Shown: positions 4,079-42,933 of the stretch, one piece after another
How the letters are laid out: every line of letters starts with the position of its first letter
How positions within the stretch are numbered: position 1 is the first letter of the stretch
Assembly (NCBI GenBank): GCA_964349305.1
Contig: CAYGFS010000001.1
Location: 15,209 to 79,208, forward strand
Direction: 5' to 3'
Origin: an uncultured Pseudomonadales bacterium
GTDB taxonomy: Bacteria; Patescibacteriota; Microgenomatia; UBA1400; UBA12108
DNA length: 64,000 nucleotides
The notes under the pieces: model-generated
Databases searched by the model: none
Told to the model about the DNA's origin: nothing
The model's input: the letters and a program-made list of their open reading frames with translations, nothing else
Translations under genes and position numbers: made by a program

Positions 4079-5368
4079 CTAGATGCTAGACGCTAGTTTA
4101 CGAACAATATTGTTAAATTGGTCACCGCGATCAAATTCGTTTTTGAACAAATCAAATGAGGCAAAGCCGGGGGAAAGTAATACCGAGTCACCGGTGGTGG
4201 CTGACTGACTCGCTAGTTTGACTGCTTCCTGCATACTCGTAGCCGTGCCAATGATTTTGTCGCCGGCCACTTCCTGGATTTTGGCAATGTAGTCAGGAAT
4301 ATTTTGCGAGCCAAGAATAATTATTTTCTTTAAATTTGGATTAATTTTGACTTCAGCGATTAGCTCTTCGTAGGGTAGATTTTTGGTGTCACCGCCAGTA
4401 ATCCAGACGGTAGGGGCAGCCGCGGCCTGCAGTGCTTTGATCGCGGCAACCGGGGTGGTCGAGGTGGTGTCATTGATGTAGGTGACTCCGCCAACTACCG
4501 CTATCGTCTCCTGACGTGAGGGAACTCCTTTAAAATCCGCGATGACCTGCTTGACCAAAGTAGAATCCAGCTGCAGGACTTGGGCCAAAGCGGCGGCGGC
4601 GGCGATATTTTCTCGGTTGTGTAAACCCGGAAGTGGTGTAGTAAAAGTAGTCACATCCGATGCCGAGTAGGCAATTTTTTGGCCGGAAGAACCCCCTGAG
4701 ATGGCGAGTGATCCTGGGTTGTCGCGGTTGAACACGGTCACATCGGTCGAGTGCTGGTATGCGACGATTGCCTCTTTGTCGTGCTGGTACGCCAGCATAT
4801 CTGGATAGCGATTGAGATGATCGGGATAGAGATTGGTAATAACCGCAATACCGGGACTGACCTGGAGGTCGTGAAAATTGTGCAGCTGGAACGAAGAAAG
4901 TTCAAGGACTGCGTACTTTTTGTTTTCGAGTTGATCAAACAGAGACAGACAAGAAGTGCCCGCGATGTTGCCACCACTGATAATCTTGCCTGGATAAGCG
5001 GTTTCGAGGATGGCAGTAATTAGAGCAACTGTCGTAGATTTACCCCGAGTACCGGTTACGCCAATGGTTTTAATACCGCAATATTTAACAAAGACGGCGA
5101 TACTAGTCAGGACTGTTTTCCCCAGTGACATTGCATAGACAATTAGTTCATGACCATCGGGAACCCCGGGGTTTTTGATAAGAATATCTGCCCAATCTAC
5201 TTGCTCTTTGGTCTGTCCCTCCTGGACAAGCATGGTGTCTTTGTCAGAAAGTCGGACTATGGCCCCGTGCTTCTCGAGCCACAAGGCGTCCCCTGTCCCC
5301 CCTCCCTGCCTACCCAGGCCAAAAACAAGAACTCTTTTATCTTTGATCTCCTCTATAAATCTGTTCAT
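4079..5368 (-). CDS. murD: UDP-N-acetylmuramoylalanine--D-glutamate ligase MurD
   Basis: Mur ligase motifs (GVTGTRGKST). Start moved to the internal ATG (MNRFIEEIKDKRVLVFGLG); the 40-aa extension in the track overlaps murI and uses a non-ATG start. Confidence 0.8.
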   Translation of the reverse strand: MNRFIEEIKDKRVLVFGLGRQGGGTGDALWLEKHGAIVRLSDKDTMLVQEGQTKEQVDWADILIKNPGVPDGHELIVYAMSLGKTVLTSIAVFVKYCGIKTIGVTGTRGKSTTVALITAILETAYPGKIISGGNIAGTSCLSLFDQLENKKYAVLELSSFQLHNFHDLQVSPGIAVITNLYPDHLNRYPDMLAYQHDKEAIVAYQHSTDVTVFNRDNPGSLAISGGSSGQKIAYSASDVTTFTTPLPGLHNRENIAAAAALAQVLQLDSTLVKQVIADFKGVPSRQETIAVVGGVTYINDTTSTTPVAAIKALQAAAAPTVWITGGDTKNLPYEELIAEVKINPNLKKIIILGSQNIPDYIAKIQEVAGDKIIGTATSMQEAVKLASQSATTGDSVLLSPGFASFDLFKNEFDRGDQFNNIVRKLASSI

Positions 5369-9810: not shown

Positions 9811-9875
9811 AAGGTCAGACCTTCCCTCCTGATTGATTATGGTCGGGTTGGGCACTTCCTTCAAGGTCTGACCTT
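9811..9875. repeat. paired 13-bp palindromes AAGGTCAGACCTT (9811-9823) and AAGGTCTGACCTT (9863-9875) with a 39-bp spacer, spanning the murC stop codon and lying 10 nt upstream of the murB start
   Basis: Direct reading: the two 13-mers are mutual reverse complements. Same architecture as the AAGGACTGTCCTT/AAGGACAGTCCTT pair at 7417-7489. Confidence 0.6.
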
Positions 9876-11215
9876 GTAGCGTCGCCTATTTTCACCCATT
9901 TTTCATGGAGTTTGTAGACAAATCCCGCACCCATGGTGAGGATGAGATCGCCAGGTTTGGAGGCGGCCCAGACAATATCGGCGGCATTGTCCCACGTGAG
10001 CGCCATGGCCGCCGAGTTATGTTTAGCCACTTCGGCGGCGAAGGACTCCGGGGTAATTTGGTGAGCTACCCCTTTTTCCCTGGCTGATTCGAAAATAGGC
10101 ATGATGAAGGGAAGATCGGACAGGGCGATCGATTTAGCAAATTCGTCCAGCAATGCTTCGGTACGGCTATAGGTATGGGACTCGAACACGAGTAGAATGC
10201 GGGAGTCAGGAAAATGTGCTTTAAATGATTGAACTGTGAGCTCAATCTCGCGTGGATGATGGCCGTAATCGTCGTAAAGTAGGCGTCCAGCAACCTCTCC
10301 ATGGCTTTCCTGGCGTCTCCCTGCTCCATGGTAGGCCTTGATCGCTGCGAGTGCTTGCGATTCGCTTAAACCGGCCTCTATGGCGGCCAAGACGGCGGCC
10401 AGTGCATCCAACTTGTTTTGATCGCCAAACACGGAGAGCTGGAGTTGGGCATAGAGCGAGTGGTTTGATCCGTATGGTATCACTTTGATATCCTGCAGGG
10501 CCTGGCCCTGAAGGTCGAGAATTTGAGCGGTCAAAGGGTCGGAGGGATTACAGATCCAAGTACCACCTACAGGAATGGAGGCCACGAGGTCGGCAAACGC
10601 CTGACGGGTAGCGGAGGCGTCCGGATAAATATCGGGATGATCGTGGATGATATTGGTGGTAATCAGGATTTGGGGAGTAAGGAGCGCAAACTTTGGCCTG
10701 GAATCAGTCTTGCTAATGGCATACTCGTCTGATTCCACCACAAAGTAGGAATCATCCCCTGCATGACCGGGGGCACTGAGCCCAGCGATAGATCCAGTAC
10801 CGACATAATACCCGACATCACGCCCAGCTGCGTGAAAAAGTGCGGCCAGCATGGCGGATGTGGTGGTCTTACCCCCAACCCCAGCCACTGAGATGACTTT
10901 TTTATCACTGACAAACTCGGCCAGAGCTTCGGCGAGTGAGAGAGGGTCAGACACTCCCGGAGTGTGGGAGCCCTTCACTCCGGGAGTGATGGATGCAGTG
11001 GCTACATAAGCCCCAGAATAAATAATTTCATCAACGTCAGGGATCGGATCGGAAAAAGATTGAATTTTGATACCTCGCTTATTCAAAATATCGTCCGTGA
11101 TAAATGACTCATTTGTGTCTGACCCAGATATAGTCCAACCGGTATCTTGCATGGCGAGAGCCAGCGAACACATCCCTACACCCTTGATCCCGATATAATA
11201 CGCTGATTTGGTCAT
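9815..11215 (-). CDS. murC: UDP-N-acetylmuramate--L-alanine ligase MurC (carries two in-frame palindromic insertions)
   Basis: 466 aa, MTKSAYYIGIKGVGMCSLA..., Mur ligase P-loop (GVGGKTTTSAML). Confidence 0.9.
   Translation of the reverse strand: MTKSAYYIGIKGVGMCSLALAMQDTGWTISGSDTNESFITDDILNKRGIKIQSFSDPIPDVDEIIYSGAYVATASITPGVKGSHTPGVSDPLSLAEALAEFVSDKKVISVAGVGGKTTTSAMLAALFHAAGRDVGYYVGTGSIAGLSAPGHAGDDSYFVVESDEYAISKTDSRPKFALLTPQILITTNIIHDHPDIYPDASATRQAFADLVASIPVGGTWICNPSDPLTAQILDLQGQALQDIKVIPYGSNHSLYAQLQLSVFGDQNKLDALAAVLAAIEAGLSESQALAAIKAYHGAGRRQESHGEVAGRLLYDDYGHHPREIELTVQSFKAHFPDSRILLVFESHTYSRTEALLDEFAKSIALSDLPFIMPIFESAREKGVAHQITPESFAAEVAKHNSAAMALTWDNAADIVWAASKPGDLILTMGAGFVYKLHEKWVKIGDATRSDLEGSAQPDHNQSGGKV
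10492..10514. repeat. family-B in-frame palindromic element copy B1 (CCTGCAGGGCCTGGCCCTGAAGG) inside murC, encoding LQGQALQ
   Basis: 22/23 identical to 42573-42595 in an unrelated GT4 gene. 11-bp arms with a 1-nt loop. Confidence 0.7.
10952..10988. repeat. family-A in-frame palindromic element copy A1 (CACTCCCGGAGTG-TGGGAGCCCTT-CACTCCGGGAGTG; arms 13 bp) inside murC, encoding TPGVKGSHTPGV
   Basis: Second copy at about 36094-36130 in a GT4 gene with the same loop, stems changed in a compensatory way (T/A swaps), and an identical encoded peptide. Confidence 0.75.
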
Positions 11216-24654: not shown

Positions 24655-25708
24655 TGATCACCTCCGCAATATCTTTGGCTACATCGTCCCAGGTGCGGGG
24701 GAATTTCAGCGGGCGACTGCGTGAGACCGCTACAACGGATTTAATTTTGCTCACTAAATCGTCGACAGAATATGGATCAAAATAAGTGACTTTGTCGCCG
24801 TACACCTCGCGATATACGGGAATATTGCTGGCAATCACCGGTGTGCCGACCATGAGAGACTCTAGCCCCACGAGGCCGTATCCCTCCATCAGAGAAGGCG
24901 TGACAAGCAGCTGGGCGTGGCAATAGACTGAGACCAATTCTTCGTCGGAAAGCCCAGATAGAATGTGGATGCGGGTGCGGTCGTACGGCGCCAGGACTCT
25001 GGCTAAAAAAGGAGATTGTTGGGATACCATAACTAGCTCGTAGTCGGGAAACTGCTTGAGAGCTTCCAGTAATACCGGGAGGTTTTTGTGGGGATAAACA
25101 TTACCGACGAATAAAATATATTTGTTGGGAATCACAAATCTTAAATTCTCAAATTTCAAATTTTTGCGGAAAATCTCGTCCGGAGCCTCGGGGATAGAGT
25201 GGATATGTTCTGGTTTGAGACCCCCGAAACTGGCTAAAATGTCGTTCTTGACGGAGTTGGTCGGGACGATGATCTCTTGCGCGCTTGCTAGGGTGCGCTG
25301 GATAACCTGGTTGTAGCCAAAACGTTTGAGGGCATATAACCAAGGCGAGCGGGTAGTCGTGTCGCTGCCCGTAAAGTGGGTTTTGATCAAATCGTGAACA
25401 GTCACTATCTTGGGGATGCCCGACAAAATGGGAGTATTGAAGTGAAAAGTGTAGAGCAGATCACTCCCCAGAGATTTGAGCAATCTCGGCAGCTTGAGCT
25501 GTTCTGCCAGAGAATAATGGGGGATATCCGCATAGACCTTCTCTACGTTGTTCCCGCCCTCGAAGTGATCATATTCGGCAGTGCGAAGTAAGACCTGCAA
25601 GGTGTAACCTTGCAGGTGTTTGGGGAGGTATTTGAGGACATTGGTGGTGTAGCGGCCGAGACCCGTGTGACCGGAACCATAAAACCTGGCATCGATGGCG
25701 ATCTTCAT
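24632..25708 (-). CDS. glycosyltransferase family 4
   Basis: Start set at MKIAIDARFYG; C-terminal PSLMEGYGLVGLESLMVGTPVIAS. Carries family-B palindromic element copy B3. Confidence 0.8.
   Translation of the reverse strand: MKIAIDARFYGSGHTGLGRYTTNVLKYLPKHLQGYTLQVLLRTAEYDHFEGGNNVEKVYADIPHYSLAEQLKLPRLLKSLGSDLLYTFHFNTPILSGIPKIVTVHDLIKTHFTGSDTTTRSPWLYALKRFGYNQVIQRTLASAQEIIVPTNSVKNDILASFGGLKPEHIHSIPEAPDEIFRKNLKFENLRFVIPNKYILFVGNVYPHKNLPVLLEALKQFPDYELVMVSQQSPFLARVLAPYDRTRIHILSGLSDEELVSVYCHAQLLVTPSLMEGYGLVGLESLMVGTPVIASNIPVYREVYGDKVTYFDPYSVDDLVSKIKSVVAVSRSRPLKFPRTWDDVAKDIAEVINARSHSL
25593..25617. repeat. family-B in-frame palindromic element copy B3 (ACCTGCAAGGT-GTA-ACCTTGCAGGT) inside a GT4 gene, encoding HLQGYTLQV
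   Basis: 11-bp arms with a 3-nt loop. The outer CCTGCA..TGCAGG matches copies B1/B2, while the inner arms differ but stay complementary. Confidence 0.6.
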
Positions 25709-34161: not shown

Positions 34162-34650
34162 TTAACCCAGAATCGGCAACGGGCGGGGCGATCTGAGGTG
34201 ATCGATATAGAGTGCTAAATCCTCACCGTGATCAAAGGCAATTTGGTCCATGGGCGGTAAATCGTCGAGCGGGAACCATTGAAGTCGTGAGATCTCGGCG
34301 TCATTTGTCCCGATTTGCTTGACTGCATCGGCAATAAAAATCATATCTACATTTTGCCGATCCTCCTTGGGACGATCTGGATTGTCATTAATGCGGAATA
34401 GACGCAGATTGGTTATTTCCCAGCCGCTCTCTTCCATAACTTCGCGTTTAACTGCGGTCTCGAGTTTTTCTCCAAACCCAAAGAACCCGCCAAGCAGCGC
34501 CCATTTGCCGGATTCCAGCATGGTCAAACCTTTGACTGGAGCACGTAATCCCATGAGCACTAGGCCATCTTTGATGACAATGGCGTTGACCGTAACGTGA
34601 CGTAATCCTGGACTGGCTAGATTACCATTTTCAAAGGTACAGGAGATCAT
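34162..34650 (-). CDS. NUDIX hydrolase
   Basis: Nudix box GGFFGFGEKLETAVKREVMEESG (GX5EX7REUXEEXGU). Confidence 0.8.
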   Translation of the reverse strand: MISCTFENGNLASPGLRHVTVNAIVIKDGLVLMGLRAPVKGLTMLESGKWALLGGFFGFGEKLETAVKREVMEESGWEITNLRLFRINDNPDRPKEDRQNVDMIFIADAVKQIGTNDAEISRLQWFPLDDLPPMDQIAFDHGEDLALYIDHLRSPRPLPILG

Positions 34651-35768
34651 TTTTGGTGTCCTCTAGCGGCAGTCATTTTGAGAATCTTGAGTGTTTCGGC
34701 GGCACATTTGTCCCAGGAGAAATGTTTGGCGCGCGCGAGGGATTTTTTGACCCATTGCTCCCGATCCCCCCTGATCTCGGTGATGGCCCGGGCAATGTCG
34801 GCCGGATCACTGGCGTTGAAGAGCACGCCAGCGTCGCCGACCACTTCGGGCAGCGAGGAGTTGCTCGCGACGGCTACCGGGGCGCCACACCCCATGGCCT
34901 CAATGGCTGGGACACCAAAACCTTCGTAAAGTGAAGGCAAAACGTAGACATCGGCGTAAGTGTAGAGAGTTTTGCGGGCTTCGTCGCTGACATACCCAGT
35001 GAGCACAATATCTTTGAATTCCGGTGAATTTTTGATTACATCGAGCGTATCGTCGGCGAGCCAGCCTATTTTGCCGGCAATGACGAGCTTGCCTTTGTAG
35101 CCCGATTGCTTGAGGAGGTGAAACGCCTGAACCAGCTTGATCGCGTTTTTGCGGGGCTGGATGGTACCTAGAAATAGAAGATAGTTTTTAGACTCCAGAC
35201 GATAGTTGGAAAGTAGTTGCGAGGATATTTTTGGACTCACGTTGAAAATATCGGAGTCGTAACCATTGTGGACGACAGAGATTTTATTTTCTGGGACTTC
35301 ATAAATAGTCATTAAATCTTTTTTGGTCGCCTCCGAAACGGCAATAACCGAGGTGGCATGATTCACGGCTGCGCGCGTCCAGTGCTTGAGTTTGTAGAGA
35401 TCGCTTGGTAGAAAAAGGTCGGGGAAATATTCGTAAGCTAAATCATGAATCGTCACTACGCTCGGGCTGCCAACATATGTAGGCATATAGTGAGCGGGAG
35501 ACCAAAATACGTCGTTTTTGGCATGAGTCATGAGATAGATCGGTAGGCCAAAACGAATCCAAGCTTTGGTAGGACCTACCTGCTGATATTGCCAATGATC
35601 AGATTCGGCGGGGAGATCGCCCTGCAAGGGATCACGGTGATAAAGGGTAAAGTCGATCTCGGTACCCTTGTACAAATGTTTGAGAATATGGAAACAATAC
35701 TGCCCAGTCCCGACCCTATTACTGGCGTTGGCTTCGTTGATGTCAATGCCGATTTGCAATCTTTTCAT
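34647..35768 (-). CDS. glycosyltransferase family 4
   Basis: Start set at MKRLQIGIDINEAN; the 30-aa TTG-initiated extension in the track was rejected. C-terminal PSLYEGFGVPAIEAMGCGAPV. Coordinates here may be off by 1 in my line counting. Confidence 0.8.
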   Translation of the reverse strand: MKRLQIGIDINEANASNRVGTGQYCFHILKHLYKGTEIDFTLYHRDPLQGDLPAESDHWQYQQVGPTKAWIRFGLPIYLMTHAKNDVFWSPAHYMPTYVGSPSVVTIHDLAYEYFPDLFLPSDLYKLKHWTRAAVNHATSVIAVSEATKKDLMTIYEVPENKISVVHNGYDSDIFNVSPKISSQLLSNYRLESKNYLLFLGTIQPRKNAIKLVQAFHLLKQSGYKGKLVIAGKIGWLADDTLDVIKNSPEFKDIVLTGYVSDEARKTLYTYADVYVLPSLYEGFGVPAIEAMGCGAPVAVASNSSLPEVVGDAGVLFNASDPADIARAITEIRGDREQWVKKSLARAKHFSWDKCAAETLKILKMTAARGHQK

Positions 35769-36849
35769 AGACCTCCAAGATATTTTTTGCGGTTGATTCC
35801 CAGGTAAATTGACTGGCTTGCTTGAGCCCACGAACTTTGAGAGTGGCATGGCTGGCAAGGGCGGTGGTGATGCCTAGTCTGATAGAGTCGATGTCGAGTG
35901 GATTGACGAGAATAGCGGCTTCGCCCGCAATTTCGGGGAGAGATGAGAGACTCGAGGTGACGACCGGCGTACCACAGGCCATGGCTTCGAGCACGGGGAA
36001 ACCAAAGCCTTCATAAAGTGAGGGGAAAGCAAAGACACTGGCGCCGCTATAGAGCCCGGGTAAGTCAGACTCGGGGACAAAACCTAACGCAATCACACCC
36101 GGTGTGTGGGAGCCCTTCACACCGGGTGTGTCGGGTACACCCCAGCCGTGCTTGCCCACAATGACAAGCGGCAGCTCCTGACCTTTGGCGGCTTCGGCTA
36201 AACGGTCAATATTTTTGCGAGGTTCTTGAGTACCTAATGAGAGAATATATTTTTCTGGTAACTTATATTTAGTTTTCACTCGATCTATTTCTTCCTTCGA
36301 TTGAGACAAATATTGTGGAGATACACCTGGATAAACTACGTCAATGCGCAGCGGTGAGAGATTGTATATTTCCACTAGATCATTTTTTGTACTCATTGAA
36401 TCTGCGATAATATGAGTGTCGGAACTGACAATCTTTTTGAGCCGTCTAGTTTGGGTTCCCAGGATGAGCGAGTCAACGGTCTCGGGATATTTGACAAATA
36501 CTAGGTCGTGAACGGTCGTGACAATTTTGGCTTTGGCACTGGGCTGGCTCCAATCCGATGCGTGTACCAAATCGACCGCGCCGGTTAAGAGCTCAAACGG
36601 AATCGAGGTATCGTTTAAGGCATAACCGGCTAGTTTAGGCGGAAGCGGGAAAATCTTCCAGGTAGCTTTGTCCCAGGGTGAGGTCTGACTGAGCCGCGTA
36701 AAAAATGCACGCTGGCGGAGCGTGCCGGCATAGAGCACAAATTCGTGAGGTGAATTTGAGTTTAATAATGCTTCGGTTAAACCCTTCACATATCTGGCTA
36801 CCCCAGTCCCTTCGTAACACATCTGAGAAACGTCGATCGCGATTTTCAT
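35743..36849 (-). CDS. glycosyltransferase family 4 (carries family-A palindromic insertion encoding TPGVKGSHTPGV)
   Basis: MKIAIDVSQMCYEGTGVARYV... C-terminal PSLYEGFGFPVLEAMACGTPVV. Confidence 0.8.
   Translation of the reverse strand: MKIAIDVSQMCYEGTGVARYVKGLTEALLNSNSPHEFVLYAGTLRQRAFFTRLSQTSPWDKATWKIFPLPPKLAGYALNDTSIPFELLTGAVDLVHASDWSQPSAKAKIVTTVHDLVFVKYPETVDSLILGTQTRRLKKIVSSDTHIIADSMSTKNDLVEIYNLSPLRIDVVYPGVSPQYLSQSKEEIDRVKTKYKLPEKYILSLGTQEPRKNIDRLAEAAKGQELPLVIVGKHGWGVPDTPGVKGSHTPGVIALGFVPESDLPGLYSGASVFAFPSLYEGFGFPVLEAMACGTPVVTSSLSSLPEIAGEAAILVNPLDIDSIRLGITTALASHATLKVRGLKQASQFTWESTAKNILEVYEKIANRH
36094..36130. repeat. family-A in-frame palindromic element copy A2 (CACACCCGGTGTG-TGGGAGCCCTT-CACACCGGGTGTG)
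   Basis: Same loop as copy A1 at 10952-10988. Both 13-bp arms differ from A1 at two positions yet remain perfectly complementary. Coordinates +/-2. Confidence 0.75.
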
Positions 36850-41882: not shown

Positions 41883-42933
41883 GAAACTCCTGACTAATTT
41901 GTTTGACCACTGATTTTAACGCGTATGGTTTGAGCTGTGCGCCATAGTCGATTTTGCTGAGTGAGTGAGCTTGCTTGATCCCCTCGACGATGGCTGTGAT
42001 ATTGTGCGGATCGACATAGATACCCTGGTTGCCGATGATGTCACGACGGATGGGGTCGTCTGAGGCCACGATGGGGAGACCGGCAGCCATCGCTTCAAGG
42101 TACACCATCCCAAATGCTTCTTGAGGATCTGGTACAAAACAAAAGATATCACTGCCGCGATAGTAATCAGCTATCTCGCTATGTTCGACTTGTTTGATCC
42201 ATTTGAACTCACCGGGATAGTGACTGAGTTGCCTGGCAATATGACCCTGCTCTTCCCCGTCCCCCACTAAACAGAGTGATACTGACAGCTGGGAAGTGGC
42301 GGCAATCACCGAATCCACATTTTTGTATTTGGAAAGGGCGGAAACAGTGAGAACGACGGGGGACGGGAGTCCAGTAAGGGGTTTATGCTTGCCTCGGAAA
42401 GGTGTTGGATCGAACGGATTGGGGATATAGACGACTTTGGTGGATGAGGGAGCGATCCCACGAGCCCACACCTCTGCATCTGGTGTCAGAGCAACGAATA
42501 AATCTGGTATGGCGCGCAGGCTAGATTTGTCGTGATGACCAATACCGGCATGGCCAAAAGTGATTATCTTGGCCTGCAGGGCCTGGCCCTGCAGGATACG
42601 AACTTGGAGTGGACCGTTAATGGCTACGATAATGTCGGGCTTAAATAGAGCCAGCTGGGGAATGGAGGACTGGGTAAACTGGGCGACCAACCCACTCTCC
42701 TGGTCGACGTGGAGACGAAAAAGTAATTTCTCCCACATATTGCGGGGGGCAGAGGGCGGGATTTGACTAAGTGGGTTAACTCGTTTGACTAAGTAGGGCT
42801 TGGGCGATACAGGGCCTGATTGGATCATGAGGACGTCGTGATGTTTGGATAGTTCACTGGCGAGTTGATCGACCACGACCTCGCTACCTCTTTCGATAAG
42901 TCCCATGGTCATGTGCAAAAAAATTATTCTCAT
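41866..42933 (-). CDS. glycosyltransferase family 4
   Basis: C-terminal FGMVYLEAMAAGLPIVAS. Carries family-B element copy B2 encoding ILQGQALQA. Confidence 0.75.
   Translation of the reverse strand: MRIIFLHMTMGLIERGSEVVVDQLASELSKHHDVLMIQSGPVSPKPYLVKRVNPLSQIPPSAPRNMWEKLLFRLHVDQESGLVAQFTQSSIPQLALFKPDIIVAINGPLQVRILQGQALQAKIITFGHAGIGHHDKSSLRAIPDLFVALTPDAEVWARGIAPSSTKVVYIPNPFDPTPFRGKHKPLTGLPSPVVLTVSALSKYKNVDSVIAATSQLSVSLCLVGDGEEQGHIARQLSHYPGEFKWIKQVEHSEIADYYRGSDIFCFVPDPQEAFGMVYLEAMAAGLPIVASDDPIRRDIIGNQGIYVDPHNITAIVEGIKQAHSLSKIDYGAQLKPYALKSVVKQISQEFHDLIK
42573..42595. repeat. family-B in-frame palindromic element copy B2 (CCTGCAGGGCC-T-GGCCCTGCAGG), perfect 11-bp arms
   Basis: Near-identical (22/23) to copy B1 at 10492-10514 in murC. 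Confidence 0.7.

Follow-up and report, generated by a model that had tools for sequence, protein, structure and literature searches.

Introduction

Rickettsia palindromic elements (RPEs; Ogata et al. 2000, 2002, summarised in PMC10969869) are repeats of Rickettsia, with those of the RPE-1 type ~100–150 bp in length and found in no other hosts. Repetitive extragenic palindromes (REPs) tagged by GTAG/CGTC have been described by Di Nocera et al. 2013 (PMC3733652), including intragenic REPs as well as the short RPE-4/RPE-6, and some of the intragenic REPs recur at roughly matching positions when orthologs from two species are compared, as seen in recB of Xanthomonas (PMC3733652). Coding palindromes of up to 284 bp are present in the mitochondrial DNA (mtDNA) of Nematomorpha (PMC6649704), with palindromes also described from Volvox mtDNA (PMC2670323). 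Here we describe a 37-bp palindromic element, two copies of which are inserted in frame, one into murC and one into the gene of a GT4-family glycosyltransferase, within a 64-kb stretch of contig CAYGFS010000001.1 (64,000 nucleotides, referred to throughout as the window), and which belongs to a family dispersed through genomes of the candidate phyla radiation (CPR). We regard the element as probably a selfish-type repeat of the REP/RPE kind.

Hairpin elements are also known from organelles in the form of the GC clusters of yeast mitochondria, and lox/FRT-type recombinase cores comprise two inverted 11–13-bp arms with a 6–8-nt spacer between them. An earlier note on the window had taken translated palindromes within genes to be mainly a Rickettsia matter, a view not upheld by the literature, in which several bacteria are reported to have intragenic GTAG/CGTC REPs (PMC3733652).

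The two copies in the window

The two copies and their host genes are arranged as follows.

9815..11215, minus strand: murC (UDP-N-acetylmuramate--L-alanine ligase, 466 aa), open reading frame (ORF) intact across the element
10952..10988, minus strand: element copy 1, T/A arm type, inside murC and encoding MurC residues 77-88 TPGVKGSHTPGV; on the coding strand, 5′ arm 10976-10988, loop 10965-10975, 3′ arm 10952-10964
35743..36849, minus strand: gene of a GT4-family glycosyltransferase (368 aa), ORF intact across the element
36094..36130, minus strand: element copy 2, A/T arm type, inside the GT4 gene and encoding GT4 residues 241-252 TPGVKGSHTPGV

Both copies are perfect hairpins of 37 bp with a 13-bp stem and an identical 11-nt loop, and are read in the same frame and orientation, each within a minus-strand ORF. 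Copy 1 has the sequence CACTCCCGGAGTG-AAGGGCTCCCA-CACTCCGGGAGTG on the coding strand and CACTCCCGGAGTG-TGGGAGCCCTT-CACTCCGGGAGTG on the plus strand, with copy 2 being CACACCCGGTGTG-AAGGGCTCCCA-CACACCGGGTGTG and CACACCCGGTGTG-TGGGAGCCCTT-CACACCGGGTGTG respectively, and the coding-strand reading of the two is C ACN CCC GGN GTG AAG GGC TCC CAC ACN CCG GGN GTG. Copies 1 and 2 have four differences, each arm showing ACT to ACA and GGA to GGT; these are confined to the third positions of Thr and Gly codons, are all synonymous, and leave both stem pairs intact. Each arm is in its own right palindromic over 13 bp, with C or G at its centre (CACNCC-S-GGN′GTG), and the copies therefore differ at four mutually correlated positions rather than at two independent pairs.

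The element pattern, with up to 3 mismatches allowed, finds two matches in the window against 0.00 expected from 100 dinucleotide shuffles. A covariance model built from the family and run with filters off scores copy 1 at 59.1 bits (E = 4e-17) and copy 2 at 58.3 bits (E = 7e-17), and detects no third copy in the 64-kb window, with nothing else below E ~1.5. The observation from which this work set out, that of two palindromic copies with a common loop and peptide and with compensated, synonymous stem changes, is thus confirmed by reading both sequences and by the shuffling. Folding of the element as RNA, a check proposed at the same time, predicts a stable hairpin with the 13-bp stem and 11-nt loop, at about -25 to -35 kcal/mol depending on the strand (-25 to -28 kcal/mol for copy 1) and with z-scores of -3.8 to -5.4.

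The window MurC is identical to database protein P0001, which carries Pfam Mur_ligase domains, and matches MurC structures in the PDB at E 1e-48. The window GT4 protein is identical to P0121, with Pfam domains Glyco_transf_4 and Glycos_transf_1. AlphaFold models of MurC and GT4 (mean predicted local distance difference test, pLDDT, of 87.5 and 89.6 respectively) show pLDDT <50 and no secondary structure at residues 77-86 of MurC and at residues 234-248 of GT4, the latter between two strands. Both insertions are accordingly predicted to sit in disordered surface loops, a location that the earlier note had proposed to test for MurC. A paralogous GT4 gene (34647-35858) lies directly downstream of the element-bearing gene (35743-36849), lacks the element, and has DDTLDVIKNSPEFKDIV as its equivalent loop. 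The mechanical ORF calls of these two genes overlap by ~116 nt, probably because the start of the downstream gene is called too far upstream.

A dispersed family and its carriers

The two window copies had been taken to suggest a genome-wide family, and searches of other genomes reveal a dispersed one. A scan of GTDB representatives (one genome per species, with that of the window not among them) with the pattern CACNCCCGGNGTG-N11-CACNCCGGGNGTG, in which 22 bases are fixed and the loop and two stem pairs are free, returned 72 loci with ~80 copies, and the same pattern returned at least 120 further loci from JGI metagenomes. Following the removal of duplicates, at least 170 non-redundant copies are known from other genomes and metagenomes, with the chance expectation far below 1.

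The carriers include Beckwith-, Curtiss-, Shapiro-, Woese-, and Roizmanbacteria, the "Microgenomates group", Paceibacteria, Berkelbacteria, and unclassified Patescibacteria, together with two metagenome-assembled genomes (MAGs) labelled Omnitrophota, with nearly all copies found in MAGs of Microgenomates and other CPR or in those labelled Omnitrophota. Several carrier MAGs are titled "uncultured Pseudomonadales" or "Gammaproteobacteria", namely those of loci L022, L023, L032, L036, L047, L054, and L060 (CAYFZD, CAZGNX, CAYICL), and L004, L012, L031, L050, and L052 (CAZUWK, CAZWLF). The genes of these MAGs are 59–73% identical to Microgenomates orthologs, which, together with their carrying the same CPR element, renders the labels doubtful.

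The closed 1.05-Mb genome CP011210.1 carries at least 8 perfect copies, and 6–10 copies are known from other MAGs. The 964-kb contig Ga0376277_0000019, also a closed CPR genome, is a further carrier. The window loop AAGGGCTCCCA is the commonest in the family, with 33 copies. Within genomes loop identity is 0.80, compared with 0.50 between genomes, and the arm type is the same in 0.81 of within-genome pairs compared with 0.28 of between-genome pairs, showing that each genome holds its own subfamily. The host genes are varied, comprising those of Obg, TsaD, RNR, MgsA, ComEC, ComM, LeuRS, MurC, GT4, and the TsaC-TsaE linker, with the element situated in the switch-region hairpin of Obg, the TsaD loop preceding LLVSGGHT, and variable loops of LeuRS. 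Its sites are surface loops modelled as disordered, or linkers between domains.

Viral contigs scanned with the family pattern gave 0 matches, and hence no evidence of a phage vector. Rfam 15 returned nothing at the gathering threshold in the window, and around the other copies either nothing or chance sub-threshold matches to eukaryotic families. No earlier description of the arm sequences, or of coding palindromes in CPR, was found in open-access papers or bioRxiv preprints. Two matches in Streptomyces isolate genomes (L040, L056) were excluded, with their arms being non-complementary and lying in high-GC, TPGV-rich repeat proteins, such that the matches are due to chance or arise at the level of the peptide.

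Filled, empty, and decayed alleles

The proposal that the 12 residues are a lineage-specific insertion was examined among the 120 closest MurC and the 120 closest GT4 proteins, and is well supported. The main length classes among the closest GT4 homologs are 356 aa (GWG-DKTQT-LGF) and 368 aa (GWG-xPx-TPGVKG[SA]HTPGV-xx-LGF), a gap of exactly 12 aa, and the proteins of a filled and an empty allele (P0134 and P0160) are 91% identical, with their genes differing by one clean 36-nt gap. Homologs of 360-363 aa retain a single TPGV, and decayed versions are found both at full length (TPGSLGAHTPGV, IPGLKGDHKPGM) and as solo arms. At the DNA level, the GT4 site holds a perfect hairpin in the window and L078, a hairpin with arm 1 destroyed in L075, a solo arm CACACCCGGGGTG in L077, and no element in L076. 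The element is absent from ~100 of the 120 closest GT4 orthologs.

In MurC, the site is filled in 3 of the 120 closest homologs (65–77% identity), namely the window, L041, and L073, with the remaining 117 carrying a short linker of the PKPVTDIKSL type. The arm type at this site is T/A in the window and A/T in L073. In the murC of L201, the 5′ flank is that of filled alleles and leads into a decayed solo arm. The earlier statement that other MurC proteins have no such stretch is correct for these close relatives only, with distant MurCs, including that of E. coli, possessing a helix and strand of similar length in this region, to which HMMER aligns the insert.

The distribution of filled alleles is patchy. 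The three filled MurCs are not mutual nearest relatives, with the closest relatives of P0010 (85% identity) being empty, as is the closest relative of P0001. Filled GT4 alleles are scattered across the tree, their nearest neighbours (83–93% identity) often being empty with a conserved DKTQT, and decayed or empty alleles occur in relatives that are 89–93% identical. The scattering of filled alleles among DKTQT-bearing neighbours gives the empty state the appearance of the ancestral one, with filled alleles repeatedly gained or imported. Filled alleles also have flank features in common, with YPAPL...F seen in MurC of L041, L073, and the solo L201, and xPx upstream of the element in GT4. In addition, divergence between the genes of P0134 and P0160, which otherwise share 83% nucleotide identity, is raised within ±45 nt of the element. 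These shared flanks and the local divergence suggest that whole-allele exchange by recombination may contribute to the patchy distribution. At a further site, the element of L015 and L034 lies in a different frame, and at different spacing to conserved anchors, from that of the ortholog at L064:4760, which favours independent events or indels in the flanks. A pre-existing arm at the empty sites was considered and found unconvincing, with the empty murC and GT4 sites matching the arm at only 7–8 of 13 positions.

Reading frames and flanking sequence

For the analysis of frames, copies were oriented by their loops, the K strand being that on which the loop begins with AAR, and the frames were scored in ORFs of at least 150 aa. 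Such an ORF and an assignable frame were found for 112 of the 170 copies, with 7 more having an ambiguous loop orientation, and the frames are distributed as follows.

K phase 2, reading TPGV-Kxxx-TPGV: 66 copies
K phase 0, reading HSRSE..HSGSV or HTRCE..HTGCV: 17 copies
W phase 0: 16 copies
W phase 2, reading TPGVWEPFTPGV: 10 copies
W phase 1, reading LPECGSPSLREC: 3 copies
K phase 1, which gives a TGA stop: 0 copies

Some copies are clearly intergenic, and in several of those the stem runs on into the flanks. The flank profile of 148 oriented copies is C-rich at -5..-3, has A/T at -1, T (62%, with C at 3%) at +1, and G at +4, and is poor in G upstream (3–9% at -1..-4, with 3% at -1). This signature is alike in every frame class, which indicates a signal in the DNA itself, one that is either a component of the unit or a preference for certain targets. 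Occurring in several frames, in both orientations, and between genes, the element is a unit of DNA and not a peptide motif.

At L115:7797-7860, L115:8898-8937, L133:6502-6541, and L145:4129-4168, a stop codon (GTG TGA or GTG TAA) comes directly after the reading ...TPGVKGSHTPGV in that frame, and either such copies can make up the C-terminal end of a protein or a different frame, in an overlapping ORF, is the one read. The perfect 12-nt palindrome AACCCCGGGGTT at positions 5162-5173 of the window, which encodes NPGV within a minus-strand ORF of 493 aa, is similar to a solo arm of the AAC..GTT variant found at L019:744, but could be due to chance (covariance model E ~1.5).

Maintenance and turnover of the inverted repeat

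Seven invariant stem pairs are fixed by the search pattern and are therefore uninformative on covariation. At the two stem pairs that the pattern leaves free, 335 of 340 are complementary, with the 170 copies divided between the arm types A/T (62), T/A (61), and C/G (36), and 11 mixed or imperfect copies. The arms are self-symmetric in 163 of the 170 copies; mixed arms without internal symmetry still pair with one another (L010, L046, L051, L032:303). Compensated variants outside the pattern, including AACTCCCGGAGTT (AACTCC..GGAGTT type), CACCTCSGAGGTG, CACTCCCGAGGTG with CACCTCGGGAGTG, and a central T:A pair, are all perfect hairpins. In a set of 91 distinct sequences, pairing holds for 99.7% of cells, and 6 of the 13 pairs have changed on both sides, a result reached in 0 of 500 shuffles, with slid registers pairing at 35–65%. 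To tell an RNA from a DNA hairpin, single-mismatch copies were checked for a sense-strand preference for G·U, with only ~5 being informative, too few for adequate power, and the two with clear gene calls (L014, L055) being opposite.

The inverted repeat is thus maintained family-wide, in keeping with the covariation seen between the two window copies. The further claim drawn from that covariation, that the hairpin is under selection, is not demonstrated as far as selection by the host is concerned. Covariation is no proof of it, since close relatives include alleles that have decayed, have collapsed, or lack the element, and since templated correction of one arm or gene conversion would give the same pattern.

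Each insertion in a gene adds a net 36 nt, or 12 codons, and leaves the ORF open. The arms are near-identical as direct repeats, such that slippage or recombination between them removes or adds one arm and loop (24 nt). Collapse by 24 nt leaves a solo, TPGV-encoding arm, as found in GT4 and murC, and tandem expansion by 24 nt is seen as arm-loop-arm-loop-arm at L115:7797-7857. The loop has been inverted between L009 and L047, where the element lies at the same codon of orthologous ComEC genes and in the same frame, with loops that are mutually reverse complementary. A second palindrome, CCTGCCTGC(N)GCAGGCAGG, is nested in the loop of the 37-mer at L029:1184-1238, L045:5054-5110, and L062:1392-1449. 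Decay is evident as a cluster of changes in arm 1 of L075 and as two synonymous mismatches in arm 2 of L199.

Origin and spread of the element

Taken together, these observations are best explained by a non-autonomous, selfish-type palindromic repeat, similar to REPs and RPEs, that has probably spread, within genes as well as between them, in Microgenomates and other CPR. The element would be translated and tolerated, and not useful to the host gene, with the excess of the TPGV-K..-TPGV frame and orientation presumably reflecting those readings of the palindrome that give an acceptable Gly/Pro-rich loop. The hairpin, or the palindromic duplex, may be what the propagation machinery recognises, keeping the arms complementary. 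Alternatively, or additionally, one arm may be repeatedly rewritten to match its partner through template switching within the element and gene conversion between copies. The filled, solo, and empty states of a gene would be exchanged or regenerated between lineages, leading to the patchy distribution at identical sites.

Several observations weigh against such a repeat. No gene that could mobilise the element, such as one for a transposase or nuclease, was identified in the regions of 8-21 kb around copies, in which the neighbours were not systematically screened, and no target-site duplication is apparent, with identical 2-, 3-, and 4-nt flanks in 13.5%, 0.7%, and 0% of copies compared with 6%, 1.6%, and 0.4% expected. 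The 55% bias towards a single frame and orientation exceeds that of a pure stop-codon filter. Most copies were retrieved by a pattern that fixes 11 of the 13 arm positions, and the conservation of the arm across phyla is in part built in. Even between proteins that are 91% identical overall, the residues on either side of the element in filled GT4 alleles depart systematically from the DKTQT conserved in empty ones, and these diverged flanks would fit import by recombination better than simple fresh insertion. Furthermore, ongoing mobility is inferred rather than observed.

An alternative view is that the element spreads by homology and not by transposition, with filled alleles moving between lineages through natural transformation and homologous recombination, and with the 13-bp arms providing the homology for ectopic gene conversion, within a genome, of solo arms or Thr-Pro-Gly-Val codon strings into full copies, a homing-like drive with no dedicated transposase. 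This would account for the filling of the same codon position in non-sister lineages of both MurC and GT4, for the flank features common to filled alleles, for the raised divergence within ±45 nt of the element, and for solo, full, and double forms exactly 24 nt apart. By sequence logic, any T-P-G-V coding string already fits 8–9 of the 13 arm positions, and the competence genes ComEC and ComM are present in carrier genomes, where they even host copies. However, a sliding-window test for recombination tracts at the GT4 element (window, L075, L076) showed identity rising only slightly in the vicinity, an effect confounded by the presence of the element, and the empty murC and GT4 sites match the arm at only 7–8 of 13 positions. 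Frames other than TPGV, intergenic copies, and the first arrival at a site without arm-like sequence are left unexplained, and we consider spread by homology rather unlikely as the explanation. More improbable is a reading of the 13-11-13 unit as a site bound by proteins or as a lox/FRT-like scar of site-specific recombination, marking the integration and later excision of a larger element or bound through CACNCCSGGNGTG by a dimeric nuclease, methylase, or recombinase. The self-symmetry of the arms, which is unneeded for pairing of the hairpin and expected for a dimeric DNA-binding protein, is consistent with such a site, as are the CCSGG core of the arms, the asymmetric loop found in either orientation, and the non-random flanks. 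Mixed arms, however, lose their self-symmetry and stay complementary to one another, the 11-nt spacer exceeds the 6–8 nt typical of tyrosine recombinase cores, and viral contigs hold no copies. No recombinase was noticed beside the copies, though neighbours were not screened systematically, and no larger element was seen with a copy at each end.

The perfect stems that persist in orthologs with otherwise saturated synonymous sites, the strong bias towards the TPGV-K..-TPGV reading, and the high stability of the hairpin could also be explained by a module beneficial to the host, either an mRNA structure acting in translation or stability or TPGVKGSHTPGV as a protein motif, kept by selection gene by gene. 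We find this very doubtful, with the element missing from 117 of 120 closest MurC and ~100 of 120 closest GT4 proteins, decayed and collapsed copies tolerated, and the host genes functionally unrelated. Additionally, the peptide is predicted to be disordered, and the same DNA is read elsewhere as HSRSE.., HTRC.., or LPEC.., or lies between genes. The chance that the element is an artefact of assembly or sequencing, such as a chimeric hairpin or adapter-derived sequence in MAGs, is negligible. All genuine matches do come from metagenome-assembled sequence, the two isolate (Streptomyces) matches forming no hairpin, but CPR are nearly without isolate genomes and occurrence in MAGs alone is to be expected. 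The element is carried by independent projects and assemblers (IDBA-UD Rifle/GW2011 genomes, MEGAHIT, SPAdes, and Logan unitigs), including the closed genome CP011210.1, and its in-frame position in long ORFs, orthologous locations, lineage-specific variants, decay states, and solo arms are all at odds with an artefact.

We therefore retain the REP/RPE-like selfish repeat as the preferred explanation. A bolder form of it, put forward tentatively and less likely to be right than wrong, is that the 37-mer is the smallest known homing-type mobile element. Its self-symmetric arm CACNCCSGGNGTG would be recognised by a putative dimeric nuclease, transposase, or recombinase common to CPR lineages and reaching the MAGs labelled Omnitrophota. 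The element would repeatedly enter the same codon of orthologous essential genes, or be driven into it by recombination after natural transformation, and would cycle between empty, full, double, and solo states in 24-nt steps, with the richness of these genomes in palindromes perhaps stemming from missing hairpin-cleaving repair such as SbcCD.

Other palindromes in the window and carrier genomes

Long minus-strand ORFs of the window contain two more perfect hairpins, whose sequences are unrelated to that of the 37-mer.

25593-25617, long minus-strand ORF: hairpin ACCTGCAAGGT-gta-ACCTTGCAGGT, read HLQGYTLQV
42573-42595, long minus-strand ORF: hairpin CCTGCAGGGC-ctg-GCCCTGCAGG, read ILQGQALQA

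Palindromes of this kind, with 10–12-bp arms and a 3-nt centre, recur in L007, L015, L024, L055, and L133, which suggests that they may form a second class of coding palindrome. Another family, of 13-12-13 structure, is represented by AAGGTTACGAACT-cgaacttcttaa-AGTTCGTAACCTT. In the fetched loci (1.38 Mb) there are ~235 perfect hairpins with a stem of at least 10 bp outside the 37-mer family, for example at L029:3149, L053:6239, and L044:2233. This is several-fold more than the ~1.2 such hairpins per 64 kb given by shuffles of the window, and CPR carrier genomes seem to be generally permissive for palindromes, or prone to generate them.

Implications

CPR/Patescibacteria have gene-dense genomes of ~1 Mb that are thought to be streamlined, yet here a repeat writes the same 12 residues into MurC, Obg, TsaD, LeuRS, RNR, ComEC, and other core proteins. 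In hosts with almost no described mobile-element biology, the element is very small and defined by its sequence, and its gain, collapse, expansion, and inversion are visible. A recurrent, homoplasious indel of 12 aa can mislead alignment and phylogenomics, as with the insert that HMMER aligned to a real MurC helix. The element also maps naturally permissive insertion sites of use in protein engineering, is a possible marker for strain tracking, and offers its 13-bp arm as bait for a recognising protein.

Comparison with known systems

The element resembles lox/FRT sites in layout, with perfect inverted arms of 13 bp on either side of a short spacer that lacks symmetry, but its spacer is 11 nt and differs between copies of one genome, and its copies are dispersed singly in genes with no linked recombinase (neighbours not systematically screened). 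A DNA uptake sequence of the DUS/USS type was rejected, since lone arms are rare: across 588 kb of loci there are 82 pairs of arms spaced by 24 nt and only 16 unpaired arms, of which several are halves of decayed pairs. A miniature inverted-repeat transposable element (MITE) was likewise rejected: inverted arms are present, but there is no target-site duplication and the unit is shorter than usual MITEs. The coding palindromes of organelles are similar in being perfect inverted repeats within coding sequence that have both arms translated, exceed their host in GC content, look selfish, and reside in a small genome. In contrast to the present element they are organellar, often much longer, and have no members common to distant lineages, and are best regarded as functional analogues only.

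As with REPs, the element is a stem-loop of 20–40 bp that forms genome-specific families with many copies per genome, and REPs are regarded as non-autonomous mobile DNA. In contrast to REPs, which lie mostly downstream of genes and have bulged stems, at least 70% of the element copies lie in long ORFs and the stem is perfect. Membership of the GTAG/CGTC REPs was rejected, since neither tetranucleotide emerges as a consensus at the ends of the 148 oriented copies profiled.

The likeness to RPEs proposed in the earlier note, that of a short, in-frame, translated palindrome, is borne out by the clean 12-aa/36-nt indel and the open ORFs, from which translation itself is inferred. Both are palindromic repeats found in frame, and presumably translated, in many unrelated and often essential genes of a bacterium with a reduced genome, at positions compatible with the fold (here loops predicted at pLDDT <50) and also between genes, with no known transposase. 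The present element differs in being 37 bp long (36 nt net) with an almost invariant, self-symmetric 13-bp arm, in its occurrence in CPR/Microgenomates and Omnitrophota-labelled MAGs, and in its 24-nt collapse and expansion and the inversion of its loop, with the two being set apart by length and host and not by alignment. The element is apparently undescribed and, though without the defining features of either, is closest in its behaviour to RPEs and intragenic REPs.

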